Program-made: the position numbers and the translations under genes
Assembly (NCBI GenBank): GCA_025963725.1
Contig: JAOQAE010000002.1
Location: forward strand, 1,356,411-1,420,410
Direction: 5' to 3'
Length of the DNA stretch: 64,000 bases
Origin: Bacteroidota bacterium
Lineage (GTDB): Bacteria > Bacteroidota > Bacteroidia > 2-12-FULL-35-15
The notes under the pieces: generated by a model
The model's input: only the letters and a program-made list of their open reading frames with translations
The model's database searches: none
What the model was told of the DNA's origin: nothing
Shown here: piece by piece, positions 9,837-62,200 of the stretch
Numbering within the stretch: position 1 is the stretch's first letter
Layout of the letters: every line of letters begins with the position of its first letter

Positions 9837-10985
9837 ATGGCATCATTAAAAGTATTTGTTTCATCTACATGCTATGACCTGAATATAGTTAGAGCACAAC
9901 TACGCTCTTTCTTGATTAATCTAGGTCACGAACCGGTAATGAGTGATTATAATGACGTATTGTTTGATCCTCGATCACATACGCATGAAAGTTGTATCCA
10001 AGAAATAAAAAACGCAGATGTCGTAATATTAATAATTGGTTCTAGATTTGGTGGAATGGCCACGCCAAAAGTTATTACGTCCTTAGATTTAGAAAATTTA
10101 AAAAACTTATCTAAAGGAAATAAGTTGATTGATACCCCTGATAAGATGTCCATAACCCAACTTGAAATATTAAATGCTGTTGAATCTAACATCCCCATTT
10201 TTACATTTATTGATTCTAGAGTATCGTATGATCATTTATTTTACGAAAAAAATAAAAATAAAGGATTTCTAGAAAATCTCGACTTTCCATCTATTGAAAA
10301 AAAAGAAAGTGCGATTTACATTTTCGAATTCATCAATTTTTTACGATTAAGATCAAAAAACAACAGTATTACAGAATTTAGTAAATCGGGTGATATAGAG
10401 GACTTTTTAAAAAAACAATGGTCATCTCTATTACAACGACTCCTGTCTGAACAGAAAAATAAAATTGTTGAAGAAAAACGACTCGATTTCTTATCGAAAC
10501 AGATCGAAGATATAAAAACAGCCATCTTAACTACCATTCCCAGTGACGAATTAAAAGAAACCGCTAAAGGTGCAATTAAGTATAGAGCCATCATAGACTT
10601 TTTGTTAAGTTTTAAAAACATTCCAACTACTGAAGAAATTATTTTAAGCAGGCTCAACTGGGAAGAACTTTTACTAAAATTTGGTATCGTTCGCACAGTG
10701 TTAACCCGAGATATAAAAAGAAAATACACTAAAAGAATGGTGATAGCTTTTATAAGAGCTGACGAGAGATTCTATTTAAGCAGATATGACAATGAGATAA
10801 TCGAAAATTATATTAAAATAGGTTGGATGGAGTTCACTCAACTACCAGATCAAAGAAAAAAAGCAATTTATAACGCTATCAAAGACAATTTTATAGAACG
10901 AGACTTTATCAGAGATTTAGAATTTATTGATAGGAAATTCGAGGACTATGAAATGGATACTAAACAGGAAGAAAAAACAGAATAA
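9837..10985 (+). CDS. DUF4062-like (TIR-superfamily) N-terminal domain protein with a helical C-terminal region; AT-rich islet
   Basis: N-terminus KVFVSSTCYDLNIVRAQLRSFLINLGHEPVMSDY...CIQEIKNADVVILIIGSRFGG matches the DUF4062 signature (VFISST.DL..eR). The gene is markedly AT-rich (about 33% GC), while flanking genes are about 50-55% GC. Confidence 0.6.
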   Translation: MASLKVFVSSTCYDLNIVRAQLRSFLINLGHEPVMSDYNDVLFDPRSHTHESCIQEIKNADVVILIIGSRFGGMATPKVITSLDLENLKNLSKGNKLIDTPDKMSITQLEILNAVESNIPIFTFIDSRVSYDHLFYEKNKNKGFLENLDFPSIEKKESAIYIFEFINFLRLRSKNNSITEFSKSGDIEDFLKKQWSSLLQRLLSEQKNKIVEEKRLDFLSKQIEDIKTAILTTIPSDELKETAKGAIKYRAIIDFLLSFKNIPTTEEIILSRLNWEELLLKFGIVRTVLTRDIKRKYTKRMVIAFIRADERFYLSRYDNEIIENYIKIGWMEFTQLPDQRKKAIYNAIKDNFIERDFIRDLEFIDRKFEDYEMDTKQEEKTE

Positions 10986-42181: not shown

Positions 42182-43513
42182 ATGGCACTGGAAAATGTAA
42201 GAAAGGCGGAGCTTCTGAAAGAGGAGCTGGACGGCCTGCGGCCCTTAAACGGCGAGCAGGAAGCCCGGATCATGCAGAAGTTCCGCCTCGACTGGAACTA
42301 CCACTCCAACCACCTGGAGGGGAACAGCCTTACATTCGGTGAGACAAAAGCGCTTATCCTGCACGGTATTACCGCGCAGGGTAAGCCTTTAAAAGACCAT
42401 TTCGAGATCACCGGCCATGATGAAGCCATCAAATGGATCGATGAGGTTATTAAGGATGAACGGCCGCTTACTGAGAATTTCATCCGGGAATTGCATACGC
42501 TCTTACTAAAGGAATCTTCCGAAAAAAAAGCCATCACTCCCGATGGAAAAGCCACTACAAGAGTTATTGCGGTTGGGAAATACAAAACAAGCCCCAACCA
42601 TGTGCTGACCAGCACGGGCGAAACATTTTATTTCGCCACACCGGAGGAAACACCGGCAAAAATGCATGATCTGCTGGAATGGTACCACAGGCAGAAAGAG
42701 AATAAAAATGTTAATCCGATCCTGTTAGCTGCAGAGTTCCATTATGAATTTATCCGCATCCATCCCTTTGATGATGGAAACGGAAGAACCGCCAGGATAT
42801 TAATGAATTTCATACTGATGCAGTTCCATTATCCTCCTGTGATCATTAAAACAGAGGATAAGGAAAATTACTTTATCGCCTTGCGGCAGGCCGATGCCGG
42901 AATGATAGAGCCTTTTATTGACTATATCGCAAACAACTTGATTCGATCATTGGAAATTATGATCAAAGGTGCAAAGGGTGGAAATATTGATGAGGAGGAT
43001 GATATTGATAAAGAGCTTCTTTTATTAGATCAGAAAATAAACTACATAAGTAAAAAAGCGCAACCATTAAAAAATCAGGATTCTATTAAACAAATCTATG
43101 AGAATTCGATTCTTCCATTAGCTAAACAATTGTCAGCTTCCGGTAAAAGGTTTGAACGATTTTACTCAAATTACATTTCGGCTCTTCAAATTAATGACGA
43201 CACGAGTGTTTACGACATAAACTCCGCGTTTAAATCAATTATCAAAAGCAACACAGATCAAATATATTTGATCCATAATTATAAGCAGTTTAATTGTCCG
43301 GGCATTGAAAAATTTGACTTTGATATAGTCATCACATTTGAATTCGCACCCAAAAAATTTACTGTTAAGACCACTTCCCAAAAGCTGGTTTATTCGAAAT
43401 ACTATAATGAATTTTTAAGTCTAAATGAAATCAAAGAAATTGCAGATTACTATACAAAACTCCATTTATCTGTACTTAAAATCGTAGTCGATAGCGCAGA
43501 AACAGAAGAATAA
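42182..43513 (+). CDS. Fic family protein (class II, N-terminal inhibitory helix) with an AT-rich C-terminal extension
   Basis: Fic active-site motif HPFDDGNGRTAR. Inhibitory motif SNHLEG ([S/T]xxxE[G/N]) sits in the N-terminal helix. The last 190 aa or so (nt ~42950-43513) are markedly AT-rich with no recognisable domain. Confidence 0.85.
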   Translation: MALENVRKAELLKEELDGLRPLNGEQEARIMQKFRLDWNYHSNHLEGNSLTFGETKALILHGITAQGKPLKDHFEITGHDEAIKWIDEVIKDERPLTENFIRELHTLLLKESSEKKAITPDGKATTRVIAVGKYKTSPNHVLTSTGETFYFATPEETPAKMHDLLEWYHRQKENKNVNPILLAAEFHYEFIRIHPFDDGNGRTARILMNFILMQFHYPPVIIKTEDKENYFIALRQADAGMIEPFIDYIANNLIRSLEIMIKGAKGGNIDEEDDIDKELLLLDQKINYISKKAQPLKNQDSIKQIYENSILPLAKQLSASGKRFERFYSNYISALQINDDTSVYDINSAFKSIIKSNTDQIYLIHNYKQFNCPGIEKFDFDIVITFEFAPKKFTVKTTSQKLVYSKYYNEFLSLNEIKEIADYYTKLHLSVLKIVVDSAETEE

Positions 43514-46565: not shown

Positions 46566-46579
46566 TAATTATTTTAACT

Positions 46580-47959: not shown

Positions 47960-48005
47960 TTCAGTGGTTCACCACAGATTACACGGATAGCACAGATAAA
48001 GCAAC

Positions 48006-50624
48006 ATGAGCATAGGAAAAGTACATAGCATAAAAAAGATGATCGCGCAGCTGTTGCTGTTAGCTGCTCCTACGGCCATCCTGTTCTTTTATCTCTTATG
48101 GGATGTTAACCGCTTTTACGACATCCTCGAGAACAACTGGATCAGACAGGGAATTTATTTTACATCAGGGATCGTCGCCGCGATCATATTCTATGCGTTC
48201 CGCTTCCGATTCTTCACAACGGCTGCCATCGTTTTCCTGTTTTGCTATTCCTGCTATAAGCTATTGGGCAGCGTTTCGTTCGGGGAGTTCGATGCGTTTT
48301 ATTTTTCCATCCAGTTCCTCATTTTCACTTTCCTCTTCTCCGTAGGATGGCTTGCCGGCTTCGGCTTCAGCAGGTCGCGGTACTTTACGGTTGCATGGAG
48401 CGTGCTGCTGCTGGTGGCGCAGATCGTGGTGGTGAGCAAAACAACCGACATCAAGGTGAATGTGCTCATCAATGCTTTTGTGCCCATTCTTGCTTACGCT
48501 TTTTACATCATCTATACAGCAGAGCTGATCCGTAACATGAACGATGATGAGCCGAAATTCAGCTGGTTCATCCTGAAGCGCCTTTCCGGATTTGCCGTGG
48601 TGGCAATGCTGCTCTTTCTCCTCGTCTTCACTTTCTTTAAGAACGATTTCATGGCTGTAGAGCGTGAATGGGGCGGTTCCCAGCCGCAATCTGAGAAAGG
48701 AAAGGACAAGAGCGAGAACATGAATAAGAAGGACGGCAAAGGCAATGTGAGCAACAAGGACCAGACAAAGCTTACCGGCTCCTTGAGCAAGGACAAGCAG
48801 CTCGTGTTTGTTGCCAAGCTCGATAACTATTTCGATGATAACATAACGCCAAATCCTCTTTACTTCACCGCTTTCTATTACGGAAAGTTTGATACGCTTA
48901 CGCAGACCTTTGAACAGGATAGCCTCATGCCTTACAACGACCTGTTCAGTCCGGACCCATCGAAGATCCCTCTGTATTTTTCGAAATCCGACTCTTCCGT
49001 CCTTAAGAACAGCTTCGCTACAAAGAACCGTAAAGTGGTGACTGCCGACATTTACAAAGTGGTGCTTTCGCCGGACGTGTACCTTGCGCCTTCAACGGCT
49101 TTCTTCTGCCAGCCGATGTCGGTGCCGAAAGAATTCAAGGACCAGTACAAAAGCTCCTACCGCGCCAAAATGTGGGTAAGCGACCTGAACAGCGCCTACT
49201 TCATCTACAACCCGGCTGGTAACAAACAGCTCGCCGCTTTCCAGGAGCTCCGCTTCAACAAATTAAGAGAGATCAAAAAGGTAACTGGCCCCGATAAAAA
49301 ATTCATGGATTATTACACCTTCATGCCGAAGGATGAAGAATACAAAAAGATCGGCGAGCTGGCAAAAGAGGTTACAGCGAATGCTTCAACGCAGATCGAC
49401 AAGATGATCGCGATCCGCGATTATTTTTTAAGCAAAGATGAATTCGGCCAGCCGCTTTTCAAATACTCCGATAATCCCGGCATCCCCGGGCTGCCAAGCG
49501 CCAACAAGCTTACGTATTTCCTTCTGGAGAACAGGAAAGGCTACTGCGCGTATTTCGCGGGGGCAACATTATTCATGCTGCGTTCGCTCGGCATTCCTTC
49601 ACGCGTTGCGGCAGGTTATCTCACAGTCGACCGCAGCAGCAAAAACCCCGGCTGGTACTGGTACTATGCCGACCAGGCACATGCATGGGTGCAGGTGTAT
49701 TTCCCTGAATACGGCTGGATCGATTTTGATACTACAGTGCCTGATGTAAATACACAGCAATCGCCGCAGCCGGATGGCACGCCCCCGATGAACATCCCGC
49801 AGACGTACATGGTCGCTGATGGGGAGATAAAATCGGTGGATGTAAAAGCAAAGAAGATCAGCATGACGATCACCAAGCTGCTCTACCATGATAAGGATTA
49901 TGAAACAAAGATCGCCAAAGAGCTGAGCATCGATGTATCGATCGCAACCATATCGGCTGATACAGGCGCCGTGCAGCTTTCTGCGCTCACACCGGGATTG
50001 CACATTACAGCCGTTTCCTATTCCGAAGCACTGAAAAATATTCTTGCTGAACAAGATGACAGCCTGGCTTCCATCCTGGAAAAACTCCCGGTACCAACTC
50101 CGGTGGACGAAGTGAAGCTGCTTTTAAAAGATGAACTGAAGGAGCAGCAAAAGAAAAAAGAGGACCAGGCAAAAGCGCCTGTCGACTGGGCAAAAACAAT
50201 CCTCTATTTGCTAACCGCCCTCGCCGGCCTGCTTGTATTGTTGTTCCTGAGCCCGTGGTTCATCTGGATCTTCCTCAATGCAAAAGCGAAAGGCAAAGGC
50301 AATTCCAAAGCCTACAACAGCTACAGGGCATCGCTTTATTACCTGAACCAGCTTGGCTTTGAGCGGCAGAACATGGGCCCGCAGGAATATGCATACAGCA
50401 TCGACAACCGTTTCGGAAGCTCATTCAATACGTTCAACACTGCGTACCAGAAAGCGAAATACAGCTCTGTGCCGCTTACTGCGGCGGAAAAAGAAGTGCT
50501 GAACAATTCCTACAACAGCTTCATTAAAAAAGTAAGATCGCAGGTGCCGCTGAAAACACGCATCAGCAGGTTCCTTAATATTTACAACACAATTCATTTT
50601 TTCACGCAACCTAAAATAAAGTAA
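48006..50624 (+). CDS. Transglutaminase-like domain membrane protein
   Basis: Multiple N-terminal TM helices. TGase core Cys-His-Asp: GYCAYFAGATLFMLRSLGIPSRVAAGY ... HAWVQVYFPEYGWIDFDTT. One further TM helix after the core. Confidence 0.75.
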   Translation: MSIGKVHSIKKMIAQLLLLAAPTAILFFYLLWDVNRFYDILENNWIRQGIYFTSGIVAAIIFYAFRFRFFTTAAIVFLFCYSCYKLLGSVSFGEFDAFYFSIQFLIFTFLFSVGWLAGFGFSRSRYFTVAWSVLLLVAQIVVVSKTTDIKVNVLINAFVPILAYAFYIIYTAELIRNMNDDEPKFSWFILKRLSGFAVVAMLLFLLVFTFFKNDFMAVEREWGGSQPQSEKGKDKSENMNKKDGKGNVSNKDQTKLTGSLSKDKQLVFVAKLDNYFDDNITPNPLYFTAFYYGKFDTLTQTFEQDSLMPYNDLFSPDPSKIPLYFSKSDSSVLKNSFATKNRKVVTADIYKVVLSPDVYLAPSTAFFCQPMSVPKEFKDQYKSSYRAKMWVSDLNSAYFIYNPAGNKQLAAFQELRFNKLREIKKVTGPDKKFMDYYTFMPKDEEYKKIGELAKEVTANASTQIDKMIAIRDYFLSKDEFGQPLFKYSDNPGIPGLPSANKLTYFLLENRKGYCAYFAGATLFMLRSLGIPSRVAAGYLTVDRSSKNPGWYWYYADQAHAWVQVYFPEYGWIDFDTTVPDVNTQQSPQPDGTPPMNIPQTYMVADGEIKSVDVKAKKISMTITKLLYHDKDYETKIAKELSIDVSIATISADTGAVQLSALTPGLHITAVSYSEALKNILAEQDDSLASILEKLPVPTPVDEVKLLLKDELKEQQKKKEDQAKAPVDWAKTILYLLTALAGLLVLLFLSPWFIWIFLNAKAKGKGNSKAYNSYRASLYYLNQLGFERQNMGPQEYAYSIDNRFGSSFNTFNTAYQKAKYSSVPLTAAEKEVLNNSYNSFIKKVRSQVPLKTRISRFLNIYNTIHFFTQPKIK

Positions 50625-50625
50625 A

Positions 50626-51645
50626 ATGGAAGAGAACATTCAAATAGAGCAAGCCCTCGCCAATATCGGGAAGCTGGTTGACAACATCGAAACGGTGATC
50701 CGCGGCAAGCGCCAGCAGATTCAGTTCGTGCTCACCGCCCTTCTTGCAAAAGGGCATATCCTCATGGAAGATAATCCCGGCACAGGAAAAACGGTGATGG
50801 CAAAAACGCTGGCGAAAAGCATCTCGGGTGCGGAAGGCTCTTCGGGCGCCAATTTCAAGCGCATCCAGTTCACTCCCGACCTTCTCCCGATGGACCTGAT
50901 CGGCTCGCACATTTTCGACGATGTGAAAAAAGAGTTCGTGTTCAAGAAAGGGCCGTTATTCTGCAATGTGCTGCTGGCGGATGAGATCAACCGCGCCTCG
51001 CCGAAAGTGCAGTCGGCGCTGCTCGAGTGCATGGCAGAGCACCAGATCACCATGGGTGAAACCACCTACCCGCTCGAAAAATTATTCTTCACCATCGCCA
51101 CGCAAAACCCCGTGGAGATGGAAGGAACTTACCCGCTGCCGGCAGCGCAGCTCGACCGATTCTTCATCAAGATCTACTTCGGCTATGTTGACGAAGCCAC
51201 AGAGCTCAATATCTACAAGGATTACCTCGGCATCCAGAACAACCAGGACAACCTTCAGCAGGTGCTGAGTATGAAGGAGATCTTATTCCTGCAGGAAGAA
51301 ACTGAAAAGGTATTTATCCACGAAGAGCTGATCAACGCCGTGAAAAATATTGTGCGTGATACAAGAAGCCACCCCGATATTGTACTCGGCGCTTCCATCC
51401 GCAGCGGGATCACCTTTTTAAAATGCCTCAAAGCATTTGCTCTGGTGAACGGAAGAACCTTTGTAACAGAGGACGACATCCGCGGGATCACCTTTGCCGT
51501 GCTGGATCACAGGCTGATCTACCGCAACAGGGACGCCCGCCAGAAAGCGCTGCCGCTGATCATCGGCAGGGAGCTCGACCGTTTAAGCAAGTTGAACATC
51601 ACCACTAACAGAACAGCCTTTGCAGCCCCTGTACAAAATATCTAA
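50626..51645 (+). CDS. MoxR family AAA+ ATPase
   Basis: GHILMEDNPGTGKT (Walker A), LLADEINRASPKVQSALLE (Walker B / sensor) and the typical 320-340 aa length. Confidence 0.9.
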   Translation: MEENIQIEQALANIGKLVDNIETVIRGKRQQIQFVLTALLAKGHILMEDNPGTGKTVMAKTLAKSISGAEGSSGANFKRIQFTPDLLPMDLIGSHIFDDVKKEFVFKKGPLFCNVLLADEINRASPKVQSALLECMAEHQITMGETTYPLEKLFFTIATQNPVEMEGTYPLPAAQLDRFFIKIYFGYVDEATELNIYKDYLGIQNNQDNLQQVLSMKEILFLQEETEKVFIHEELINAVKNIVRDTRSHPDIVLGASIRSGITFLKCLKAFALVNGRTFVTEDDIRGITFAVLDHRLIYRNRDARQKALPLIIGRELDRLSKLNITTNRTAFAAPVQNI

Positions 51646-53677
51646 AACCCGGTTTCTCTTGCCCGCGCTGCTGTGCATGAGCCTGTTCCTCCACAAAAGT
51701 GCGGGAGCGCAGGGCAATGCATCGGCGCGCTATGAGATCGATGCAAAGCGCATCGGCGTATCTCCTACCGATAAGGACGCGCTGCCGCGGAGCCGCGAGT
51801 TCCTCCGCCTCGACAGCACCTATTATGTTGGCTGGATGTACGAAGGGCTTTATAAATTTGAACGCAGCGCCGATTATTTAGGATATAAGTATGCAGCAGT
51901 GCCTTTGCAGAAAGCATTCGACCTGCTCGACAAAGATTACGGCAACCGGCTGAGGAATATCTACTCCTCCTTCATGTATTACGAGCAGAACAGGAACCGC
52001 ATGAGCGACCTGTTCGAGATCGCCTATGCGCTGCAGAACTGCTACAACAGCATCGAGATGCCTGATTCCACGATGGCGCTCCTCGACAGGATAGAAAGCT
52101 ACCGTTTTCAAAAAGACTATTTCGGCGTTTACAACGAGCGCGCATGGATCTACCACCGTAACCGCTTTTTCACTTCCGAAAAATTCAGCTTCCTGAAAAA
52201 TTCCGTGGAAGAGAATGAAGACATGGCCTTCCGCTGCTGCTACCACCAGCTCGACCTGATCCAGCAGAACAGGAGCATCAACGATTACTGGTACGGGCCG
52301 CAGCAAAGCGAAGATGATATTTTAAGCGTGGAGCATAACCTCGCGCTGCTGCATTGCTACAATAAAAATTACGACAGCGCCGAATATCATTACCAGCACC
52401 TCATCGCCGGCAACCGCGTGGTATGGGGAAATTATGCGAACATGCAGCATGAGATGGGGAACATCGACAGCGCGATCACCTACTACTCCATGCCGCAAGG
52501 TGTAAGAGAACACGCGCTGAGCGAGCCCGATTATTATCTGCCGGAGATCTTTGTGTACGGCGGGCGCACAAAAGAGGCGATCACGATGGTGCGTGAAAAG
52601 ATCGAATCGAGCGGCTCCACTCCCGGTTTCGGATGGTACAACATTGCGCTGGCACGCAGCTACCTGTACGACGGACAGCTCGACAGCGCGGGCTTCTTCC
52701 TCGATAAAGCGCAAAACTTCAAAGAGCTTCACCTGCATACTACGCTAACACAATCACAGTATGAATTCACCATCAACCTGCTGAGGGTGCAGCTGCTCGA
52801 TAAAAAAATGGATGAAGTGAAGTTCCTCAACAAAGGATGGTGGTATTCGCCGGGCAGCCTGTACGACCTGCTTTCGCTGAAGGTTCAGAAGATGATGATG
52901 GAGTATGTAGTTGTGAACGAGCTTGCCGCGAATCCCGAGCGGCAGCGGATCATCTACGACCTGTTCTGCGGCGAATCAACCGTAAGCTACGATGAGATCA
53001 TGTACCTGCTGAAGGACTTTAATTCCCCCTACTTCCGCAAGCGCTGCGATTACAGCAAGGGCAACGACAAGCGGATGCGGATCCGGAAATACTTCAAGCT
53101 GTTCTCCGCAAAATTAAAGCTGGAAGACGGTGATGACGAAGATGCAAACATGGAAGCGGATTCACTGCTACAGGAAGTATACGCACAGGAAGGCATCCAG
53201 CTCGATACGGCCAATGAAAAGCTTTTCCTCGCAAGGGCCTATGAAATCCTCTCCAATACAAGCGATGATGAGGACAAGCAGGCGGAGCACGACCGTTACC
53301 AGAACAGCTTCCTTGAAGAATACCCACAGCTGGTTCCCTTTTCGAACCTGCGGATGAAAATGAAATTAACAGTCGCAGGAAATGATGATGCCATCACCGC
53401 ACAGGTAATAGAAGATCTTAAAGACTGCAACATTGAATGGCTGGAAGAAGGCGACAACGTTGCAGAAGCCAGCATCAGCTTTGTAAAGAAAGGAAAGAAC
53501 TACCAGGTGCTTTTCAACGTGGTGAGCGCCAGCGGAAAAGCGATCGTTTCCGGCGGCGAGATGATCTTTAAGGATGCGGAGAAAACCGGGAAGGAGCTGG
53601 CATTGCGGCTGTTTGCAAAGGGCGGAGGATTGGAATTTGAAGCGGTGAAGGAAGAAGCGGCGGAGCAGTTACCATAA
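51620..53677 (+). CDS. Secreted hypothetical protein (operon partner of MoxR/DUF58/TGase)
   Basis: Likely TTG start overlapping the MoxR 3' end. Hydrophobic signal-like N-terminus LLPALLCMSLFLHKSAGAQ. TPR-like helical content. No assigned family. Confidence 0.5.
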   Translation: MQPLYKISKTRFLLPALLCMSLFLHKSAGAQGNASARYEIDAKRIGVSPTDKDALPRSREFLRLDSTYYVGWMYEGLYKFERSADYLGYKYAAVPLQKAFDLLDKDYGNRLRNIYSSFMYYEQNRNRMSDLFEIAYALQNCYNSIEMPDSTMALLDRIESYRFQKDYFGVYNERAWIYHRNRFFTSEKFSFLKNSVEENEDMAFRCCYHQLDLIQQNRSINDYWYGPQQSEDDILSVEHNLALLHCYNKNYDSAEYHYQHLIAGNRVVWGNYANMQHEMGNIDSAITYYSMPQGVREHALSEPDYYLPEIFVYGGRTKEAITMVREKIESSGSTPGFGWYNIALARSYLYDGQLDSAGFFLDKAQNFKELHLHTTLTQSQYEFTINLLRVQLLDKKMDEVKFLNKGWWYSPGSLYDLLSLKVQKMMMEYVVVNELAANPERQRIIYDLFCGESTVSYDEIMYLLKDFNSPYFRKRCDYSKGNDKRMRIRKYFKLFSAKLKLEDGDDEDANMEADSLLQEVYAQEGIQLDTANEKLFLARAYEILSNTSDDEDKQAEHDRYQNSFLEEYPQLVPFSNLRMKMKLTVAGNDDAITAQVIEDLKDCNIEWLEEGDNVAEASISFVKKGKNYQVLFNVVSASGKAIVSGGEMIFKDAEKTGKELALRLFAKGGGLEFEAVKEEAAEQLP

Positions 53678-53843
53678 TACAGATAATAGATATTTACGAA
53701 TAATCTGTGTGAATAGCCAGCTTAGGATAAGCTATTGACTATTTATTAAATAATTAATAGATTTGTTAACTACCATACAACAGGCTCATTGTTAATATAG
53801 TGAATTAGAAACCACTAGAGAAATTAATTACAAACAACGAAAT

Positions 53844-55301
53844 ATGACTATAAAAAATCTTGAAGATGTATTTGTTACGGAAGGTGTTCCCCTTTATACC
53901 TTCGTAAAACCACCAAACTATAATGATATACTTTTAGACATTCGTAAAATTGGTAAGCCGGTTATTATTGAAGGGCAATCTGGGACTGGAAAAACAACCA
54001 CAGTGAAAAAAGTTCTTGAACAACTTGCTGAGAGGATTCAAATCAACTATTTGTCAGCAAGAAAAGCGATTGACGTAGAACAAATAGTGAAAATTGCTTC
54101 CACATCAATGTCCGGTTTTTTTGTCATCGACGATTTTCATAGGTTATCAAGCGAATTGCAGGAAAACCTCGCCAACATTGCTAAAGTTGCCGCGGAAGAA
54201 GGAAATGAAACACAACTTCCTAAGCTTATTTTTATTGGAATTAATCAAATTGGGTCGGAACTGATTCAATTAGTTCCTGACATTGCTAAACGATTTGGTA
54301 TACATAGAATTGATGCTGGAAGAAGCGATGATATTAAAAAGCTTATTGACAGCGGCTGCGCCGAATTAAATATTTCAATTACCAATCTAGAAGAAATTTA
54401 TTCTGAGTCCAAAGGTGATTATTGGCTAACTCAAATACTATGTCAGTCAATTTGTGGTTTGAATGACGTCACTGAAACCCAACAAAAAAAACGGCAAATA
54501 CATTATGATATTGACAAAACGCGCGCAAAAGTTGTTGGTAAGCTAGAAGCTTCTTATCACATTCCAGTGAAGGACTTTTGCCGGGGAAAGCGATTTCGAA
54601 AATCAAATGATCCGTATTTTAAGCTTCTTCGAGTTATCGGACAACAAGATTCGTCCATAGTTGACCTCAACAAACTTGCCAATCAGCATGAGGATGTCAA
54701 AGGTTCGATTAATAACATTAAGGAGCGACGTCTTGACATTTTGTTGGAGACTAAAGAATCATTAGTTAGATACTTTTATTATAACAGTGATACAAAAAAT
54801 TTCGCCATCGAAGATCCCGCACTATTTTATTACATAAAGCACTTAAATTGGGAGAAATTAAGAGATGATTGTGGCTTCAATGATGGAGAACGAAATTACG
54901 AATTTGAGATTGCTATCTCCTTCGCTGGGGAAAACCGTGAACTTGCAAGAAAATTCACTGAAAAACTAGAGATTTTTGATGTAAGCGTGTTTTTTGATGA
55001 ATTATACGAATCTAATCTATTAGGAAAGGCTTTAACGAAGCAATTTACTAGAATATTTAATGAAGGAAGCAAGTTTGTATTATGCCTGTTAGACCATCAT
55101 CATCATGAAAAAATATGGCCAACATTCGAGAGAGAAACTTTCCGCGTACGCGTTCAAGAAGAAGCTATCATACCTACTTATCTTGACAATACTAAGTTTC
55201 TTGGAATTCCAGAAGATTTGTATGGTTTTGATATGAAAAATGGATATTCTGAAGATGATATAGATAACGCGGTTATTAAATTGGTAGAAAGAATTAGTTG
55301 A
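53844..55301 (+). CDS. P-loop NTPase with C-terminal TIR domain (defense-like); AT-rich
   Basis: Walker A PVIIEGQSGTGKTTTV and Walker B FFVIDDFH in the first 110 aa or so. C-terminal EFEIAISFAGENRELARKFTEKLEIFDVSVFFDE...SKFVLCLLDHHHHEKIWPTFE matches TIR secondary-structure motifs (FISY/FAGED..., αC SxWCxxEL-like). GC is about 36%, against about 50% in neighbours. Confidence 0.65.
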   Translation: MTIKNLEDVFVTEGVPLYTFVKPPNYNDILLDIRKIGKPVIIEGQSGTGKTTTVKKVLEQLAERIQINYLSARKAIDVEQIVKIASTSMSGFFVIDDFHRLSSELQENLANIAKVAAEEGNETQLPKLIFIGINQIGSELIQLVPDIAKRFGIHRIDAGRSDDIKKLIDSGCAELNISITNLEEIYSESKGDYWLTQILCQSICGLNDVTETQQKKRQIHYDIDKTRAKVVGKLEASYHIPVKDFCRGKRFRKSNDPYFKLLRVIGQQDSSIVDLNKLANQHEDVKGSINNIKERRLDILLETKESLVRYFYYNSDTKNFAIEDPALFYYIKHLNWEKLRDDCGFNDGERNYEFEIAISFAGENRELARKFTEKLEIFDVSVFFDELYESNLLGKALTKQFTRIFNEGSKFVLCLLDHHHHEKIWPTFERETFRVRVQEEAIIPTYLDNTKFLGIPEDLYGFDMKNGYSEDDIDNAVIKLVERIS

Positions 55302-55503
55302 AAGTTTTCAGCGGTGTGACACCAGCTAGTCCTTTTTCAATCATTTATTTCTTCCACTTCCCCAGAGATGTGATTGATGTGCAGAACACCAAGCAAGGAA
55401 CTATTATTCGGTTCCAAAACCTCTCCAATCGTAGCTGTATTTCTCTCTTTTCCCCCACCGGATAAATTCCGTATTTTTAGATACTCATTCCAACACCGCG
55501 TTT

Positions 55504-56706
55504 ATGCTCAAACCATTCGAATTTCAGTTCCGGTTAAGGGATCATTTCAAAAAGCAGGAAAAAACCTGGAAATGGTTCTCGGAAGTAAAAGTTAAGAACG
55601 AACAAAGCGAGGAGTTCAAAGCCGAGCTTTTACAAAACACCTATCGCCTCGACCCTATCTCCGAAGCCGGCATTTATACATTGCTGGAGGAAGCCAAAAC
55701 AAAGCTGGGCATCATCATCCCGGTCACCATCTATCAGTCGCAATCTTCACAGGCAAGCAACGCGGGGATCATCTTCATCGGGAACGAAGCGCACCTTGTG
55801 CTTTCAGGCCCTGTCATAAAATTACTCGAAGAAAAGGAATTGCTGGCGCTGATCGCGCACGAGCTCTCGCATGTGCTGCTGTATACAATTGATAATGGCG
55901 ATTTTGAGGTGACCAGCAGGATCATCACAGCGATCGGCAACGATCACCGCAGCGAAGAAGCATTCATGGAAACGTCAAGGCTGTTCAGTCTTTTCACTGA
56001 ATTATACTGCGACATCGGGGCTTACCAGGTTTGCGGAAGCATGGATACGGTGATCTCGACGCTTGTGAAAATTGAAACAGGCCTTGATAAGATCTCCGCG
56101 GAAAATTACCTGAAACAGGCGGATGAGATCCTGGAAAAAATTGAAAAAGGCTCGCTTGGCGACTCGCATCCCGAATCATTTATCCGCGCAAAATGCATTG
56201 CCCTCTACGCTGAAAAAGGCGCGGAATCAGTAAAAGAAGTAAGCGCCCTTATTCTTGGGAAACAAGGTATTTTCAGCCTGAATATTTTTTCAAGGGATGA
56301 GATCTATGAAACAACACGCGAGCTGATCCACCTTATCATGAAGCCTAAATGGATGCAGAGCGAGCACAACAAAGCGCATTACAGGCAGTATTTCAGGGAC
56401 TTCAAAACCGACAGCAATGCCATGCTCACACCTGAGCTGAAAGCCAAGCTGGTCAGCGGCAATAATTCGCTGAAAGATTATTACGCGTATGTTATGCTTG
56501 ATTTTGCGCTGAGCGATACAGAGATCAGTGAACCCGCTTCCGGCCTTGTGCTCGACCTTGCAGAGCAGATGGAGCTACAGGAGCCGCTTGCAAAGGTCTT
56601 CAAAAAGGAGCTAAACCTGAGCGATAAGAAATTCAACGAGTACTCAAGAAATGCAGCAACAGCCTTAAATAATATCCTGGAATCGGAGCAGGAAAAATCA
56701 TATTGA
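55504..56706 (+). CDS. Soluble M48-like zinc metallopeptidase (HExxH...E...HPxxxxR)
   Basis: LLALIAHELSHVLLY (HExxH), a downstream Glu in ELYCD, and LGDSHPESFIRAKC. No TM segments. Its stop (56704-56706) is 1 nt before the ATG of the giant helicase gene, so the two are translationally coupled. Confidence 0.55.
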   Translation: MLKPFEFQFRLRDHFKKQEKTWKWFSEVKVKNEQSEEFKAELLQNTYRLDPISEAGIYTLLEEAKTKLGIIIPVTIYQSQSSQASNAGIIFIGNEAHLVLSGPVIKLLEEKELLALIAHELSHVLLYTIDNGDFEVTSRIITAIGNDHRSEEAFMETSRLFSLFTELYCDIGAYQVCGSMDTVISTLVKIETGLDKISAENYLKQADEILEKIEKGSLGDSHPESFIRAKCIALYAEKGAESVKEVSALILGKQGIFSLNIFSRDEIYETTRELIHLIMKPKWMQSEHNKAHYRQYFRDFKTDSNAMLTPELKAKLVSGNNSLKDYYAYVMLDFALSDTEISEPASGLVLDLAEQMELQEPLAKVFKKELNLSDKKFNEYSRNAATALNNILESEQEKSY

Positions 56707-56707
56707 T

Positions 56708-59700
56708 ATGCTTACAATAAAAGAAACGGAATTTTACAGCTTCCTCAGCGAAGGGATCGGCAAGGGCGGGTTTACCAATGATGATGTGGTTGCTGTTATA
56801 ATGCCATTGCTGGAAGAAGTGCATTCATTTCATCTTTCGGGAAAGGTGGCCCCGCTGGATAAGCTCAGCTCGATACTTGTAACAAACGAAAAGCTCGATA
56901 TTGATGAGTCGCTTGCGGGAAGCCCCTGCAATAACGTTGACAAGGTAACAGCCATCCTGCCAAAGAAAAATGAGGTGTTCGAGATCAGCGGCCACCTGAA
57001 GCAATCGACAGAGATCGGCGAATACAATTCCACCGAAGTAAAGAACCGCGAGATACAATCTGATGCGAATGCGGACATCCTGATGCCGGTGTACCTGCCC
57101 AATTATAAATGCTACGAGGTGTCGCTCGGCCATCACGATGCTGCTACCGACATTTACATCCTGGGGATGATCCTCGCGAGCCTAGCGCTGGGGCTTGACT
57201 TCACGCAGGAAGATGACCTTGCAGGCTTCGCGGAGAACAGGGGAAGCATGATCTTCCTGAATCACAAGATCCATCCTTCGATCGCGAACATCATTTTCGG
57301 GATGACCGAGCTCGACCGCCGCAAACGCTGGAAAGACCTTGGCGAGATCATCGATAATTTAAAGAACTACCGCGATTACAACCCGGAAACCGAGCACGAC
57401 CTTGCCACTATCGCCAATGCAAAGAACAAGGACAAAAGCAACAGGCAGCACTACATCCAGGGCAAGCTGCGCAACAGGCTGTTCGACATCAGCCGCCGCA
57501 ACAGGCTCTTGTATTTCAAGCCCAATCTTAAATTTTTAAATCTTTCCGTGTCTTCCGTTCCTGCGGTCCTTAATTACAAAAACATCGATCCTGAATCGTT
57601 GTTCTTCTGGAACAGGGATGTTTCCGAAAAGGTGATAAAAGGAAAAGACATTTCCCTTTCGAAATACATCCGCTTTGAAGACAATCCTTACATCGCGCCT
57701 TCCCTCGACAAGATCAGGCTGGAAGCGAACAGGGATGTGAATGAATATGGCTTCAGCCAGCTTAAGCTTGTGATCAGCTTCCTCAACTGGTACAATACAA
57801 AGGAGCAAACAACCGAAAAGATCTGCTCACCGCTCATACTTGTACCGGTAAACCTCGTTAAGAAAAAAGGCGTGAAAGACCAGTACATCCTGGAAATTGT
57901 GGACAATGAAGCGGAAATAAACCCGGTGCTTTCATTCATGCTGAAAGACCTGTACGACATCCGCCTGCCGGAAAGCATACAGCTTTCGGAGAGCAGCCTC
58001 GATGAGCTTTTCCGGAATTTAAAGACACAGATAGAAAAGGCGCGCTCGGGGATCGTGCTCGAAATGATCAACAAACCAAAGATCAAGCTGATCCATGCGC
58101 AGGCCAGGCAAACGCTGTCGCAATACAAAAGAAGGGTGAACAGGAACAGGAAAGTACAAACCTTTCACAACCTTGATTATTCGTACAATGCAGATAATTT
58201 CCAGCCTTTAGGCCTGCAGCTTTTCCGCAATTATGTGAAGCCGGAGCATTCCTCGCTCGAGTTCCTTATCAACAGCGACATAAAAGCGAATCCCTCCTAC
58301 TTCAGCGACAGCAGCATGTCGGAAACAACCCGCGAACTGTACCAGCTCGATGGGGGAAATACAAATCCTTTCAAATGGGAGTTCGATACCTGCAACATGG
58401 TGCTGGGGAATTTCAATTATAAAAAGATGTCGCTGGTGCGCGATTACAATTCCATCATCGACGAGAACATTCAAAGCAGCGTGTTCGAATCGCTGTTCAG
58501 CAGCCTTCCGAAAAAGGCCCGGCCGGAACAGGAAACGGAAAGCAGGATCGAAGAGCAGTTCAATGTGATCCAGTCGGACCCGACACAAAACAAGTCAGTA
58601 ATATATTCCCGCAAAGGGGAAAGCTATATCATCCAGGGCCCTCCGGGCACAGGGAAATCGCAGACCATTTCCAACCTTATTGCAGATTATGTGGCAAGAG
58701 GAAAAAAAGTGCTGTTCGTTTGTGAGAAAAGGGCCGCTATCGATGTGGTGTATTACAGGCTGAAGCAGCAGCAGCTCGATCAGCTGTGCTGTCTCATACA
58801 CGATTCCCAAACCGACAAGAAAGAGTTCATCCAGAACCTGAAAGCTACCTTCGGAACATTTACAACGAAGCCGCTTTCCGCAAAGGAAGCAGAAAAGGAA
58901 CGGAACGCTATCGTTGCGCAGATCAATTCGGAGCTCAGCGTCATCAAAGAATTTCACTCCTCCATGCAGCATTACCTTGATCATGCGCAGCTGAAAATAA
59001 GGGAGCTGATGGAAGTGTTGATCCAGAGTAAGCAGCATATTCCGGAAGGCAAAGAAATACCGGGAAGCATTGGCTATAAAGACTGGCTTGCCTACGGCGG
59101 GCTGATTCAGAAGATCTCCCGGACAAGCAACGAGCTGGAGGGAAGCCCTTTTTATTCGAAACATCCATTCAGGTACTTGGGTGAAAAAGCGATCTATAAC
59201 GAGAAGCCGGGAACTGAGCTGAAGGCAGAGCTTATAAGATCGATGGAGCTGGTCGGCGAGATCGCTGAGAGGCTTGAAATGGCCGACGTTCCGGAATCAT
59301 GCATAGGCAGCATTACAGCGCTCCGGGAATTCCTGGAACAGGTGGAAATGCTTCTTCCGTTCAAAGAGCAGGACCGGGCCGGGCTGCTTACCGTCAACAG
59401 CGAACTTCATAAAAAGCTTTCCGATGCAGTGACCAACCTCGAAACGATGCATGCGAAAGTGGAAGAAGCCGCAGGAAAGAATAAGTTCTGGCTTCAGAAG
59501 TTTTCGGAGACCGATGCGGAAAATGCGCTTGAGATCGTGCAAAAACATGAAAGATCATTTTTCTCATTCTTCAATTCCAGCTTCAGGAAGATCAAAAAAG
59601 CGATCCATCAATCCTATAATTTTTCCATGCACCAGGTAAAGCCGCCGCTCACACAGGTGGTTTCCAACCTCAAGGCGGAATACGATGTGCGCAATAGCTT

Positions 59701-62170
59701 CAATAAAGAAAAGCAAAGCACGGAGCAGTTCTTCAGGCTGGGCGATCTGTTCAGCCTTGCTAAAAAGCTGAAAGAGATAGAACCGAGATCAGGCACGCCG
59801 GCCTTTGCCTATGTGAAGAATGAAGAAACCGGCCTTGGCAAGCTAAAAGACCTTGCGGAGATCAGGATCCTCTTCGGCCAGCTGGATGCTTCCCTGCAGG
59901 AAAACCTGCGTGATACTTCCCGCCAAACACTGGAAAGCCTTTCTGAGATCATGCAGGCGATCATCGCGCGCACAAAGGACCTTTCCGCCTTTGCACCGCT
60001 GATGCGCGAACTGAATAGCGCAGATGCCGCGCTGAAGCAGATCGTGCTGGAGGAAAACCTGCTTCCCTCGCAGGTTAAAGGGCTTCTTGCAAAAGCGAGC
60101 ATTGATAAGTTCTACAGCACAAACCGCGATGCCCGGAAGATCGAAGGAGAAAAGATCCTGCACCAGGTAGCAAAGATCAAAAAGCTCTACCAAAAATTCT
60201 TAGCTGTCAACTCGGGATACATCATTGCGAAACAGCAGGAGCGCTTTAATAAGCTGATCCAGAAATCGGAAATGTCGATGGCAGGGAAAAGCAACCAGGA
60301 AAAAGAAGAAAAAAGATCACTGGTGGAAGGAAGAAAGATCCTTGACAATGAATTCGGGAAAAGCATGCGGTATAAATCGATCCGCGAAATGGCAACCTCC
60401 GAATCGGGACAGATCATCCGCGAGCTAAAACCTGTGTGGCTGATGAGCCCACTCAGCGTTTCGGATACGCTTCCGCTGCGCACCGATTATTTCGATGTGG
60501 TGATCTTTGATGAGGCCAGCCAGATCACGCTTGAAGAAGGTGTGCCGCCGGTTTACCGCGCCTCGCAGATCATCATCGTGGGTGACGAGATGCAGATGCC
60601 GCCGAGCAATTATTTCAGCAGCTCCTCCTCCGACCCCGACGATCTTTGGGAAGAGGACGATGAAGATTCGAAGCTGCTTTCACTCGATGCCGACAGCTTC
60701 CTCACGCAGGGCGCACGAAAATTTCCTTCTGTAATGCTTGGCTGGCACTACCGCAGCAGGCATGAATCGCTGATCGGCTTTTCCAATGCATCTTTCTATA
60801 AAAATGAATTGCTCACGATCCCGGATAATCTAGACAATCAGAATGAGCTGAACGAAATAACAGCAGAAAATAAAAACGATGCTGTAACCAATGCGGCTGC
60901 ATTGCTCGAACGCCCCATCAGCTATCATTTTCTGAAGCATGGCGTTTATGAGAGCCGCAGCAACATTGCCGAAGCGGAGTATATCGCGGAGATGATCCGC
61001 ACATTGCTCCTGCAGAAAAAAGGGCTAAGCATCGGCGTGGTTGCCTTCTCCATGGAACAGCAGGGAGAGATCGAAAGCGCGGTGACGAACCTTGCCAGGG
61101 AGGACAAGGAATTTGAAAAGGCGATAGAGGAAGAATACAAGCGCATGGAAGACAACCAGTTTGTGGGGATCTTCTTTAAAAATTTAGAGAATGTGCAGGG
61201 CGACGAGCGCGATATCATTATCATGAGCACCTGCTACGGGTACGACCCTAAAGGCAAGATGATCATGAACTTCGGGCCGATCAACAGGCGCGGCGGCGAA
61301 AAAAGGCTGAACGTTATTTTTTCACGCGCGAAAAAAAGGATGTGCGTAGTAAGCTCCATTAAGTATACCGACATTAAAAATGAATACAATGAAGGCGCGA
61401 ACTACTTCCGGAAATATTTGCAGTATGCGGAACATGCAAGCAAAGGCAATATGGAAATGGCGAACCTGGTGCTTCAATCCGTGATTGCGGAGGAAAAGAA
61501 AATAAAGCAGGAGCTATACAATACGGTGGTGATCGGCCAGCTGGTGAAAATGCTGGAAGATAACGGCTACAGCACCACAAAGCTGATCGGGCAATCGTAT
61601 TTCAAATGCCATATCGGGGTCAAAAGATCAGCCTCCGATACTTCCTATACTGCGGGCATTCTCGTGGACGACATGTTTCATTATTCGAACAGCGACCTTC
61701 TTGAGCAATACCTGTTCAAGCCGGAGATCCTTCGCTCCAGCGGATGGAAAGTGATGCAGGTGTACTCAAAGGATTGGTACGATGACCCGGATAAATTAAC
61801 AAAGCGCATCCTTGGCTTTATTGAAAGCGATGCGCTTGCTGAACCAAGGGATGAAGCCCCGGAAGAGGAAACGGGATTTACTGAAGAACAACCAAATGAT
61901 GAAACATTTCCGGAGTCTCCCGCAGAAGAAGCAGGAGATGATAATTCCCTGAGCACCGGCGCTGTTCGCCTGCTCAACAGTGAGAACAACAGCAACAAGT
62001 TCTGGGAGATCCATGCAGAAGAAAATAATTTAGTGATCCGCTATGGCAAAGCCGGTACGAAAGGGCAAAGGATCATCAAATCATTCGATACAAAAGCAAT
62101 GGCGGAAAATGAAATGCAGAAGCTGATCAGGCAGAAGCTTGCCAAAGGATATAAAGCCAGCGAAGGCTGA
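56708..62170 (+). CDS. 1820-aa multidomain protein: kinase-like N-terminal remnant, DUF4011, Upf1/DNA2-like SF1 helicase, Vsr/DUF559-like endonuclease fold, and a C-terminal WGR domain
   Basis: N-terminus: LLEEVHSFHLSGKV...ILVTNEKLDIDESLAG and YEVSLGHHDAATDIYILGMILASLALGLDF resemble kinase subdomains VIb-IX without an N-lobe. DUF4011-like segment: DISRRNRLLYFKPNLKFLNLS. Helicase motif I: QGPPGTGKSQT. Motif II: VIFDEASQ. Further motifs: VGDEMQMPP, WHYRSRHESL and RLNVIFSRAKKR (motif VI). Endonuclease-like region: CHIGVKRSASD...AGILVDDMFHYS...GWKVMQVYSKDWYDDP (DUF559/Vsr-like). Terminal WGR: NKFWEIHAEENNLVIRYGKAGTKGQ...KLAKGYKA. Confidence 0.8.
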   Translation: MLTIKETEFYSFLSEGIGKGGFTNDDVVAVIMPLLEEVHSFHLSGKVAPLDKLSSILVTNEKLDIDESLAGSPCNNVDKVTAILPKKNEVFEISGHLKQSTEIGEYNSTEVKNREIQSDANADILMPVYLPNYKCYEVSLGHHDAATDIYILGMILASLALGLDFTQEDDLAGFAENRGSMIFLNHKIHPSIANIIFGMTELDRRKRWKDLGEIIDNLKNYRDYNPETEHDLATIANAKNKDKSNRQHYIQGKLRNRLFDISRRNRLLYFKPNLKFLNLSVSSVPAVLNYKNIDPESLFFWNRDVSEKVIKGKDISLSKYIRFEDNPYIAPSLDKIRLEANRDVNEYGFSQLKLVISFLNWYNTKEQTTEKICSPLILVPVNLVKKKGVKDQYILEIVDNEAEINPVLSFMLKDLYDIRLPESIQLSESSLDELFRNLKTQIEKARSGIVLEMINKPKIKLIHAQARQTLSQYKRRVNRNRKVQTFHNLDYSYNADNFQPLGLQLFRNYVKPEHSSLEFLINSDIKANPSYFSDSSMSETTRELYQLDGGNTNPFKWEFDTCNMVLGNFNYKKMSLVRDYNSIIDENIQSSVFESLFSSLPKKARPEQETESRIEEQFNVIQSDPTQNKSVIYSRKGESYIIQGPPGTGKSQTISNLIADYVARGKKVLFVCEKRAAIDVVYYRLKQQQLDQLCCLIHDSQTDKKEFIQNLKATFGTFTTKPLSAKEAEKERNAIVAQINSELSVIKEFHSSMQHYLDHAQLKIRELMEVLIQSKQHIPEGKEIPGSIGYKDWLAYGGLIQKISRTSNELEGSPFYSKHPFRYLGEKAIYNEKPGTELKAELIRSMELVGEIAERLEMADVPESCIGSITALREFLEQVEMLLPFKEQDRAGLLTVNSELHKKLSDAVTNLETMHAKVEEAAGKNKFWLQKFSETDAENALEIVQKHERSFFSFFNSSFRKIKKAIHQSYNFSMHQVKPPLTQVVSNLKAEYDVRNSFNKEKQSTEQFFRLGDLFSLAKKLKEIEPRSGTPAFAYVKNEETGLGKLKDLAEIRILFGQLDASLQENLRDTSRQTLESLSEIMQAIIARTKDLSAFAPLMRELNSADAALKQIVLEENLLPSQVKGLLAKASIDKFYSTNRDARKIEGEKILHQVAKIKKLYQKFLAVNSGYIIAKQQERFNKLIQKSEMSMAGKSNQEKEEKRSLVEGRKILDNEFGKSMRYKSIREMATSESGQIIRELKPVWLMSPLSVSDTLPLRTDYFDVVIFDEASQITLEEGVPPVYRASQIIIVGDEMQMPPSNYFSSSSSDPDDLWEEDDEDSKLLSLDADSFLTQGARKFPSVMLGWHYRSRHESLIGFSNASFYKNELLTIPDNLDNQNELNEITAENKNDAVTNAAALLERPISYHFLKHGVYESRSNIAEAEYIAEMIRTLLLQKKGLSIGVVAFSMEQQGEIESAVTNLAREDKEFEKAIEEEYKRMEDNQFVGIFFKNLENVQGDERDIIIMSTCYGYDPKGKMIMNFGPINRRGGEKRLNVIFSRAKKRMCVVSSIKYTDIKNEYNEGANYFRKYLQYAEHASKGNMEMANLVLQSVIAEEKKIKQELYNTVVIGQLVKMLEDNGYSTTKLIGQSYFKCHIGVKRSASDTSYTAGILVDDMFHYSNSDLLEQYLFKPEILRSSGWKVMQVYSKDWYDDPDKLTKRILGFIESDALAEPRDEAPEEETGFTEEQPNDETFPESPAEEAGDDNSLSTGAVRLLNSENNSNKFWEIHAEENNLVIRYGKAGTKGQRIIKSFDTKAMAENEMQKLIRQKLAKGYKASEG

Positions 62171-62200
62171 CATTGAATACGATGTCAACACCTCAGCTGT

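Follow-up and report, generated by a model that had tools for sequence, protein, structure and literature searches.

What is the role of a gene that joins an ATPase to a TIR domain in one polypeptide, and how did it reach a Bacteroidota genome whose base composition it does not share? The gene lies at 53844..55301 (+) of a 64,000-nucleotide stretch of a Bacteroidota bacterium (GenBank assembly GCA_025963725.1, contig JAOQAE010000002.1, positions 1,356,411 to 1,420,410 of the forward strand), the whole of which is referred to here as the window. It is a single open reading frame (ORF) with an ATG start that encodes 485 amino acids, and a six-frame ORF list holds no competing frame of at least 60 amino acids within it. 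A database match showed the product, below called the AAA+-TIR protein, to be identical to the NCBI entry 'hypothetical protein JWO09_1224' of a Bacteroidetes bacterium metagenome-assembled genome (MAG). An initial annotation of the window had described it as a horizontally acquired TIR-domain NTPase and had associated it with anti-phage defence. In our judgement the gene is probably a self-contained, single-protein immune module that acts by abortive infection. The evidence for this comes from the two halves of the protein, from the company that its ATPase keeps in other proteins, and from the distribution of its family.

The C-terminal TIR domain

The C-terminal domain is a TIR domain by profile, by fold and by a conserved candidate active-site glutamate. 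Its features are as follows.

54900..55298 (+), TIR domain, about residues 353-485, from Pfam TIR_2, profile comparison with PDB and Foldseek
54918-54938 (+), SFAGENR, residues 359-365, invariant
55116-55133 (+), WPTFER (W425-P-T-F-E429-R), invariant
55128-55130 (+), candidate catalytic glutamate E429, from alignment to the WxxxE glutamate

Pfam TIR_2 is matched at residues 356-472, where its score of 28.9 bits just passes the cut-off of 28. Compared with PDB sequences, the family profile reached AbTir (1.7e-4), BtpA (6.3e-4), TcpB (0.0099) and RPS4 (0.038). In the profile alignment E429 pairs with the WxxxE glutamate ('W..YE' in AbTir and 'WPARE' in BtpA), which is the catalytic residue of the AbTir and BtpA NADases. 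When residues 346-485 were predicted alone (pLDDT 79.4), all of the top 50 Foldseek matches in PDB were TIR domains. The best was the filament form of AbTir (7uxu_A; E 4.6e-6, TM 0.67/0.69), followed by RUN1, PdTIR, TcpB/BtpA, TIR-STING, SPARTA, MyD88, SpbK and SARM1. The TIR domain proposed by the initial annotation is thus borne out by profile matches, and the fold check it had suggested for the last 140 residues yields a TIR fold in all of the top 50 matches.

The N-terminal ATPase

The N-terminal 345 residues are, in the predicted structure, an ORC/Cdc6-like module made up of an AAA+ core, a lid and a winged helix. The following features were located in it.

53922..54323 (+), AAA+ alpha/beta core, about residues 27-160, from Pfam, invariant columns, AlphaFold2 strand order and Foldseek
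53973-53999 (+), Walker A GQSGTGKTT, residues 44-52, invariant in the alignment
54117-54134 (+), Walker B FFVIDD (hhhhDD, with D96 and D97; catalytic Glu absent), DD invariant
within 54234-54248 (+), sensor-1 candidate N134, invariant
within 54279-54305 (+), R150 and H154, invariant
54324..54878 (+), helical lid (about residues 161-206), then a helical and winged-helix-like region (about residues 223-345), AlphaFold2 model
54414-54428 (+), GDYWL motif in the lid, invariant
54582-54599 (+), basic motif RGxRFR, residues 247-252, invariant
54606-54617 (+), NDPY, invariant
54702-54734 (+), basic helix GSINNIKERRL with K293 and R296, invariant
within 54828-54851 (+), H333 and W336, invariant

Pfam P-loop families match at residues 35-133 (AAA_22, 35.2 bits; AAA, 25.7 bits). 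nSTAND3 reaches 28.4 bits against a cut-off of 27.2 over residues 35-98 only, and nSTAND5 (28.2 against 34) and NACHT (20.4 against 26.7) stay below the Pfam cut-offs. With AAA_22 and nSTAND3 at the N-terminus and TIR_2 at the C-terminus, the domain order is the one first described. The NTPase itself, previously called short, is the whole 345-residue module.

The AlphaFold2 model of the whole protein (pLDDT 86.4, pTM 0.71) places a five-strand AAA+ core at residues 40-156; after it come a lid of helices, one long helix, a bundle of helices that includes a beta-hairpin (residues 311-322), and finally a beta-alpha-beta domain. Its top Foldseek matches in PDB are RFC subunits, archaeal ORC2, Cdc6, RuvB, MgsA and ORC1 (E about 1e-8 to 1e-6); ClpC also appears among the top 50, and no STAND structure does. 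The matches to ORC2 (1w5t_A, E 1.5e-8) and Cdc6 (1fnn_A, E 2.9e-8) extend over 417 and 423 columns, with superpositions at TM values of only 0.37-0.44, probably due to inter-domain orientation in the model. The winged helix is called from this model and from the ORC/Cdc6 match of the whole protein rather than from a separate domain search. GDYWL is placed where ORC/Cdc6 proteins have their sensor-2 region. The DD in place of a DE Walker B suggests a slow-hydrolysing nucleotide switch, not a motor. An identity as an Orc1/Cdc6 replication initiator was considered and rejected, as the protein scores 19.6 bits against a threshold of 181.3 for TIGR02928 and 15.2 against 354 for PRK00411.

The module in other proteins

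A profile of residues 1-345 was searched against 1.84 billion cluster representatives and retrieved 1295 proteins at E <= 1e-3, of which 253 had E <= 1e-30, and the whole module proved to be embedded in many longer proteins. By Pfam, the architectures are module + TIR; REC + module + TIR; HD-CE + module + TIR; HsdM methylase + HTH + module + TIR; TIR + NB-ARC + TPR + module; DUF4062 + NACHT (+ HEAT) + module + TIR; and TIR + module + Metallophos. Among 62 longer representatives, TIR_2 was found in 57, Metallophos in 8, EAD1 in 3, and DUF4062 and PNP_UDP_1 in 2 each; nSTAND1, N6_Mtase, a protein kinase, WD40 and HD-CE occurred once each. These partners belong to the usual building blocks of prokaryotic conflict systems.

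In most of the longer relatives inspected individually TIR_2 is C-terminal, and relatives of about 490 amino acids share the layout of the window protein. Given TIR_2 in 57 of the 62 longer relatives, a TIR domain after the module is therefore the norm of the family and not an inversion. The earlier picture of an inverted TIR-STAND protein does not hold: the ATPase resembles ORC/Cdc6, RFC and RuvB, a repeat sensor is absent, and a C-terminal TIR is common among relatives. The slot C-terminal to the module behaves like an exchangeable effector position, occupied by a TIR domain or by a phosphoesterase. Where module and TIR stand behind a complete STAND receptor, they look like a downstream effector cassette.

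Three relatives of 634-666 amino acids (P0051, P0075 and P0161; about 60% identity) carry an N-terminal REC domain before module and TIR, which hints at control by phosphorylation or at a pseudo-receiver.

Distribution, conservation and neighbours

The family is large, horizontally mobile and strongly constrained, and it has no conserved partner gene. A homologue search returned 967 proteins at E <= 0.001. Among the 120 matches listed, nearly all are 484-506 amino acids in length, match over their full length and are 57-87% identical; the range reported for homologues is 55-87%, and the close homologues, about a thousand, are counted as clusters at 90% identity. Source databases name them at most 'TIR domain-containing protein', and in a literature coverage that is incomplete for subscription papers we found no experimental or dedicated computational description of the family.

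A scan of one genome per species gave 74 loci (L001-L074) in at least 13 phyla. The loci lie in Bacteroidota, Alpha-, Beta- and Gammaproteobacteria, Nitrospirota, Binatota, Myxococcota and Desulfobacterota, with others in Acidobacteriota, Chlorobiota, Kiritimatiellia, Leptospira and Brocadiaceae; one Gracilibacteria MAG and one Micrarchaeota MAG (39% identity) also carry a copy. Across this breadth the protein is little changed. An alignment of 25 diverse homologues has a mean column identity of 67%, and Walker A, D96-D97, N134, R150 and E429 are invariant in all 25. Compared with the 86%-identical copy of Algoriphagus (L001), identity at codon positions 1, 2 and 3 is 0.866, 0.951 and 0.473, a pattern of purifying selection.

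Neighbours within 8 kb were surveyed at the 74 loci and the window by crude ORF calls and all-against-all clustering. The cognate partner genes for which the initial annotation had proposed a search did not emerge, as the largest neighbour cluster is present at 9 of the 75 loci. Among 124 directly adjacent proteins scanned with Pfam and PADLOC, no Pfam family recurs in more than two, and the PADLOC scan brought up no recurrent neighbour. Adjacent genes are in part housekeeping genes (ribonucleotide reductase, carbamoyl-phosphate synthase, AcrB, topoisomerase I, sulfatase) and in part of defence type (MmeI/DrmMI-type IIG restriction enzymes, reverse transcriptases, ThsB-type TIR proteins, PIN domains).

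Carriage by mobile elements was low in the collections searched. Plasmids gave 9 near-full-length matches in 72,556 records, phages no full-length match in 50,697 records, and viral contigs one locus among 2.9 million. On the Pantoea agglomerans plasmid pNBBC01-2 (L075), a 51%-identical homologue belongs to a dense island at 6872-15915; a Phd/RelE pair stands on one side of the homologue, and on the other are a TIR protein of 162 amino acids, a phospholipase of CBASS type, two additional TIR proteins and one protein with a macro domain. A Gloeothece plasmid has a CBASS phospholipase and a TIR gene in the vicinity of a relative with 30% identity. The single viral-collection locus (L081, IMG/VR UViG_2630968564_000002, 4369-5817; 55% identity) is near the end of a 43.9-kb predicted prophage, and could be prophage cargo or the result of a mis-set prophage boundary.

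For the defence role that was first suggested, the setting therefore speaks only in part. The window copy sits in a hotspot beside a helicase resembling Hhe, ProA and PDC-S37 (described below), and plasmid copies lie amid CBASS, TIR and toxin-antitoxin genes, which agrees with that role; the neighbours of homologues in general are mixed. The defence setting is suggestive without being consistent.

Acquisition and the insertion site

The gene has a GC content of 0.353, against 0.474 for the whole window and about 0.48 in its flanks, and lies 4.0 standard deviations below the mean of non-overlapping 1458-bp segments (mean 0.477, standard deviation 0.031). Its GC content at first, second and third codon positions (GC1, GC2 and GC3) is 0.477, 0.298 and 0.282. 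Five neighbouring genes have GC1 and GC2 similar to these and GC3 of 0.58-0.69. The deficit is thus almost wholly at third codon positions, which rules out amino-acid composition as its cause; the low GC is therefore a codon-usage signal. The contrast with the flanks that had first drawn attention to the gene is real.

The same contrast recurs throughout the family. GC is below that of the flanks at all 71 loci with enough flanking sequence (mean difference -0.119), and GC3 at 66 of 68 loci (mean -0.19), with a correlation to host GC3 of r = 0.74. AT-richness is a family property and no specific clue to the history of the window copy, so that low GC loses the weight it had been given as evidence on this copy. 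It fits either a short stay in the host, in line with the AT bias seen across the mobilome, or selection that favours AT-rich codons.

The gene is nonetheless a recent acquisition, judged by an insert that is missing from the closest relative, as the initial annotation had supposed; the foreign GC3 is consistent with this. Immediately upstream lies a gene for a 685-amino-acid TPR-like protein, and a homologue of this protein with 96% identity is encoded on L077, a metagenome contig of 32 kb. By blastn this contig is 90.6% identical in nucleotides to window positions 43602-53680. The homology ends at 53680, three bases past the stop codon of the TPR gene, and restarts at the end of a minus-strand GNAT gene, at 62201. 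The insert and the genes that share it are as follows.

53681..62200, variable insert of 8,520 bp between the TPR-like gene and the GNAT gene, missing from L077
55504..56706 (+), M48/SprT-like HExxH gene, 400 amino acids
56708..62170 (+), DUF4011/SF1-helicase/MTES_1575 nuclease/WGR gene, 1820 amino acids

On L077, 564 bp separate the two anchors, with a 137-amino-acid RraB-like gene between them. Other relatives carry other cargo at this site, with genes of 237 and 67 amino acids in L078 and a NUDIX gene in L080. L077, L078 and L080 each differ here, and the site is therefore a variable hotspot. The window has no tRNA genes, there is no Rfam match in 53300-56000, and no junction or flanking repeats longer than 8 nucleotides were found at the insert.

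The cargo of the insert looks like a small defence island. The 1820-amino-acid helicase matches PADLOC PDC-S37 at 2e-203 and falls below the NCBIfam cut-offs for ProA (657.6 bits against 1500) and Hhe (438.6 bits against 2000). Its gene and the M48/SprT-like gene, whose product has no PADLOC match, are one base apart, and the pair may be an undescribed protease and helicase variant of the Hhe/ProA group. The GC3 of these two neighbours is 0.58 and 0.62, and from the contrast with 0.28 we infer that the AAA+-TIR gene is likely a separate, later insertion from a low-GC donor. A functional link between it and the M48-like and helicase genes was rejected because neither gene recurs beside homologues; the contrast in GC3 likewise suggests separate acquisitions. 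Aligned with the Algoriphagus copy (86% identity), the gene shows no similarity beyond its start and stop codons.

Upstream of the gene, one region may serve its expression.

53678..53843 (+), AT-rich intergenic region of 166 bp, GC 0.265, candidate promoter

A sigma-70-type scan found TTGACT-17-TAGATT at 53735-53763 (TTGACT itself at 53735-53740), and TAGATTTG at 53758-53765 is a box of the TAnnTTTG type, the Bacteroidetes -7 promoter consensus. Sigma-70-type matches are not enriched in 53678-53843, at 9 against 6.3 +/- 2.9 in shuffles. Of the AT-rich, promoter-like stretch noted earlier, the AT-richness is confirmed, and a promoter is plausible, at a frequency of matches that does not exceed that of shuffled sequence. 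The region has an identity of 0.465 to the corresponding region of the Algoriphagus copy, with a shuffle mean of 0.472, and is not homologous to it. A scan for intrinsic terminators found no consensus terminator; an imperfect hairpin with a T-run 3' of the stop codon was spotted by eye only.

Two further loci of the window were noted in passing. A 1.47-kb segment at 42132-43601 is missing from the three closest syntenic contigs (L077, L078 and L080) and contains an ORF at 42182..43513 (+) for a 443-amino-acid Fic-domain protein (PADLOC PDC-S04, 9e-38; SoFic, 8.1e-28); it resembles a further small insertion of defence type in this genome. Only one other patch in the 64 kb, at about 9.8-11 kb, is as AT-rich as the AAA+-TIR gene. 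This patch (about 9800-11400, GC about 0.29-0.32 against about 0.50 in its flanks) holds a second solitary AT-rich gene at 9837..10985 (+), whose product of 382 amino acids has an N-terminal DUF4062 domain (2e-17) and no PADLOC match. DUF4062, a TIR-like fold, also heads the fusion proteins of NACHT, module and TIR.

Comparison with known systems

The window protein is a TIR-domain protein and not a canonical STAND/NLR protein. The STAND/NLR-like TIR proteins (bNACHT, Avs-type, 'TIR-NLR') likewise combine a P-loop NTPase and a TIR domain in one polypeptide, and the logic they would be expected to share with it is nucleotide-dependent oligomerisation that leads to TIR NADase activity and to aborted infection. 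The hhhhDD Walker B is as in many STANDs, and the matches to nSTAND3 and nSTAND5 are marginal. The tripartite STAND layout is not present, however: the effector stands at the C-terminus, and neither a repeat nor an additional domain was detected in the 485 amino acids. The best structures, furthermore, are RFC, ORC2/Cdc6 and RuvB, with no STAND in the Foldseek top 50. Some relatives have an entire NACHT or NB-ARC STAND fused ahead of the module, and the two are therefore distinct units.

Similar in architecture are the ORC/Cdc6-clade AAA+ ATPases of conflict systems. These were noted computationally (PMC10853773) and occur in operons with HerA/FtsK, REases, a second inactive Orc/CDC6 or a KAP NTPase. 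An AAA+ core, a lid and a C-terminal winged helix are found in these proteins (PMC10853773), in BrxC of BREX and in SspC, as in the window protein. Unlike the operonic proteins described there, the window family is solitary, and the two are likened by architecture without implying membership of the same clade.

For the TIR half, the closest matches in sequence and structure are the NADases AbTir, BtpA/TcpB and PdTIR, with the WxxxE glutamate conserved. Those proteins have their TIR with an N-terminal coiled coil or short region and are secreted, of virulence type or stand-alone; the window TIR is instead tethered to an ATPase switch, and its identity to TIRs of the AbTir, BtpA and PdTIR type is only 17-21%. 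SARM1, TIR-SAVED, TIR-STING and SPARTA, which are among the structural matches, share a common principle in which a module other than the TIR controls oligomerisation and TIR NADase activity. Their controllers (ARM-SAM, SAVED, STING and Argonaute-APAZ) are unrelated to the one found here, and none is an AAA+ ATPase. The window protein should work in the manner of the STAND-TIR and scaffold-TIR immune proteins.

Defence models were searched in PADLOC v2 and NCBIfam (June 2026). The only model of the defence library to touch the lid and winged-helix part is PADLOC PDC-S59, a model without a curated threshold, which matches residues 80-335 (50.1 bits, 5.2e-14) over profile positions 143-404 of 428 and matches every module relative tested with 23-62 bits. 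We found no published description of PDC-S59. It is at most a distant relative, and itself only a candidate system. Two further assignments were rejected: Thoeris, with no ThsA in the window or the top neighbour families and ThsB_TIR in 2 of 124 adjacent proteins, and Retron-TIR (NF042941), with 19.7 bits against a cut-off of 600 and over the TIR part only.

Proposed mechanism and alternatives

TIR NADases require TIR-TIR assembly, as in SARM1, AbTir, TIR-SAVED, TIR-STING, SPARTA and plant TNLs. The resting protein would be monomeric and its TIR inactive, because such an assembly is needed to form the active site. The AAA+ module is the only plausible assembly device, and ATP-dependent clustering of the TIR domains is therefore proposed. 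On an infection cue the AAA+ modules would oligomerise with ATP into a ring or filament, as ORC, Cdc6, DnaA, TnsC and MuB do; the clustered C-terminal TIRs would hydrolyse NAD+ by way of E429 and deplete it; and growth would stop before the invader could finish its cycle. The AbTir structure that the TIR matches best, 7uxu, is the active filament form, which supports an oligomer-switched NADase. The cue would most plausibly be some feature of nucleic acids, recognised by conserved basic surfaces of the winged helix and the AAA+ part. Such a cue is favoured because there is no separate sensor domain and because conservation is too strong for a protein engaged in an arms race with variable phage proteins. 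It is the weakest step of the mechanism.

Several observations weigh against this account. Many homologues stand alone amid housekeeping genes such as those for ribonucleotide reductase, carbamoyl-phosphate synthase, AcrB and topoisomerase I, and for an immune sensor the identity found across phyla, at 55-60%, is unusually high. The defence libraries gave no strong anti-phage match, only weak ones to PDC-S59, PDC-S66 and Retron-TIR, and the TIR_2 score barely passes the Pfam cut-off. Defence, NADase activity, oligomerisation and nucleic-acid binding are all deduced from sequence and predicted models. DNA sensing in particular, like the winged helix, is drawn solely from the model and from conserved basic residues, and residues 247-345 contain 18 K+R against 15 D+E, so that the winged-helix region as a whole is not strongly basic.

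A bolder form of the proposal makes the protein a sensor-less 'proto-NLR', in which the ORC/Cdc6-like switch itself would bind invader nucleic acid, polymerise with ATP and assemble a TIR NADase filament. We regard this as possible but doubtful. If true, immune receptors of one protein that sense nucleic acids would form a new class, conserved at 55-60% identity in over a dozen phyla, CPR bacteria and DPANN archaea among them, and larger NACHT and NB-ARC proteins would also use AAA+-TIR as a downstream cassette.

Four other explanations compete with an immune NADase. One, which we think unlikely, is that the TIR generates a signal as Thoeris ThsB does, with a cyclic ADP-ribose-type or related messenger that activates an effector encoded elsewhere. 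Bacterial TIRs can indeed produce signals, as in Thoeris; the TIR part of relatives gives weak ThsB-type and Retron-TIR scores, and the Pantoea plasmid homologue lies beside other TIR and macro-domain genes. A mobile pair would be expected to stay linked, however, and none of the 74 loci has a ThsA-like or other conserved adjacent partner. The Metallophos domain found C-terminal to the module, in some relatives with an N-terminal TIR, fits an effector slot better than a signalling one.

A non-immune function has a similarly small chance in our estimation. The gene might be a toxin carried as selfish or competitive cargo, or might regulate NAD or nucleotide metabolism, and its horizontal spread would then have nothing to do with phage defence. 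In favour of such a function, many homologues are solitary amid housekeeping genes and outside recognised defence islands, conservation is very high, unlike that of fast-evolving immune sensors, and no curated defence model matches. Against it stand the lack of an adjacent antitoxin or immunity gene and the near-absence of the family from phages and viral contigs and its rarity on plasmids. The module is, moreover, fused to NACHT, NB-ARC-TPR, EAD1, DUF4062 and a restriction-type methylase, and the window and plasmid copies lie amid defence genes.

It is also improbable that the TIR acts on nucleic acids, as a 2',3'-cNMP synthetase or nuclease that the AAA+ and winged-helix module would load onto invading DNA or RNA. 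Such activity has been reported for some plant TIR domains; to our knowledge it is not established for bacterial TIR proteins. An ORC/Cdc6-like AAA+ with a winged helix is typical of DNA-loading proteins, the winged-helix region has invariant basic motifs, and some relatives carry in the C-terminal slot a Metallophos phosphoesterase that a PADLOC 'Endonuclease' effector model also matches. The closest TIR matches are nevertheless the bacterial NADases AbTir, BtpA/TcpB and PdTIR, and no sequence feature marks a nuclease-type activity.

That the ORF is what remains of a transferred gene, decaying and without function, as its foreign codon usage (GC3 0.282) and variable hotspot might suggest, is scarcely credible for an intact, full-length frame that is collinear with its homologues from start to stop, keeps every invariant motif residue, and differs from the Algoriphagus copy mainly at third codon positions.

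Significance

The concept of NTPase-gated TIR abortive infection is already known; the new part is the ORC/Cdc6-like scaffold and the large, unstudied family that carries it. The control of TIR NADases by oligomerising scaffolds is central to immunity, from bacteria to plants and animals. STAND NTPases, SAVED, STING, Argonaute and SAM domains are known to serve as such scaffolds, and a compact ORC/Cdc6-like AAA+ and winged-helix scaffold with a C-terminal TIR would add another solution. The occurrence of the module behind complete NACHT and NB-ARC receptors suggests a reusable amplifier-effector cassette. The AT-rich silent sites found throughout the family pose a general question, whether its members are perpetual new arrivals or are under selection for AT-richness.

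The AAA+-TIR gene is a good candidate for experimental validation. If its trigger is a nucleic-acid feature, the protein would offer a simple, 485-amino-acid model of how AAA+ assembly gates TIR activity, and the family could bear on the origin of NLR-type receptors from ORC/Cdc6-like ATPases.

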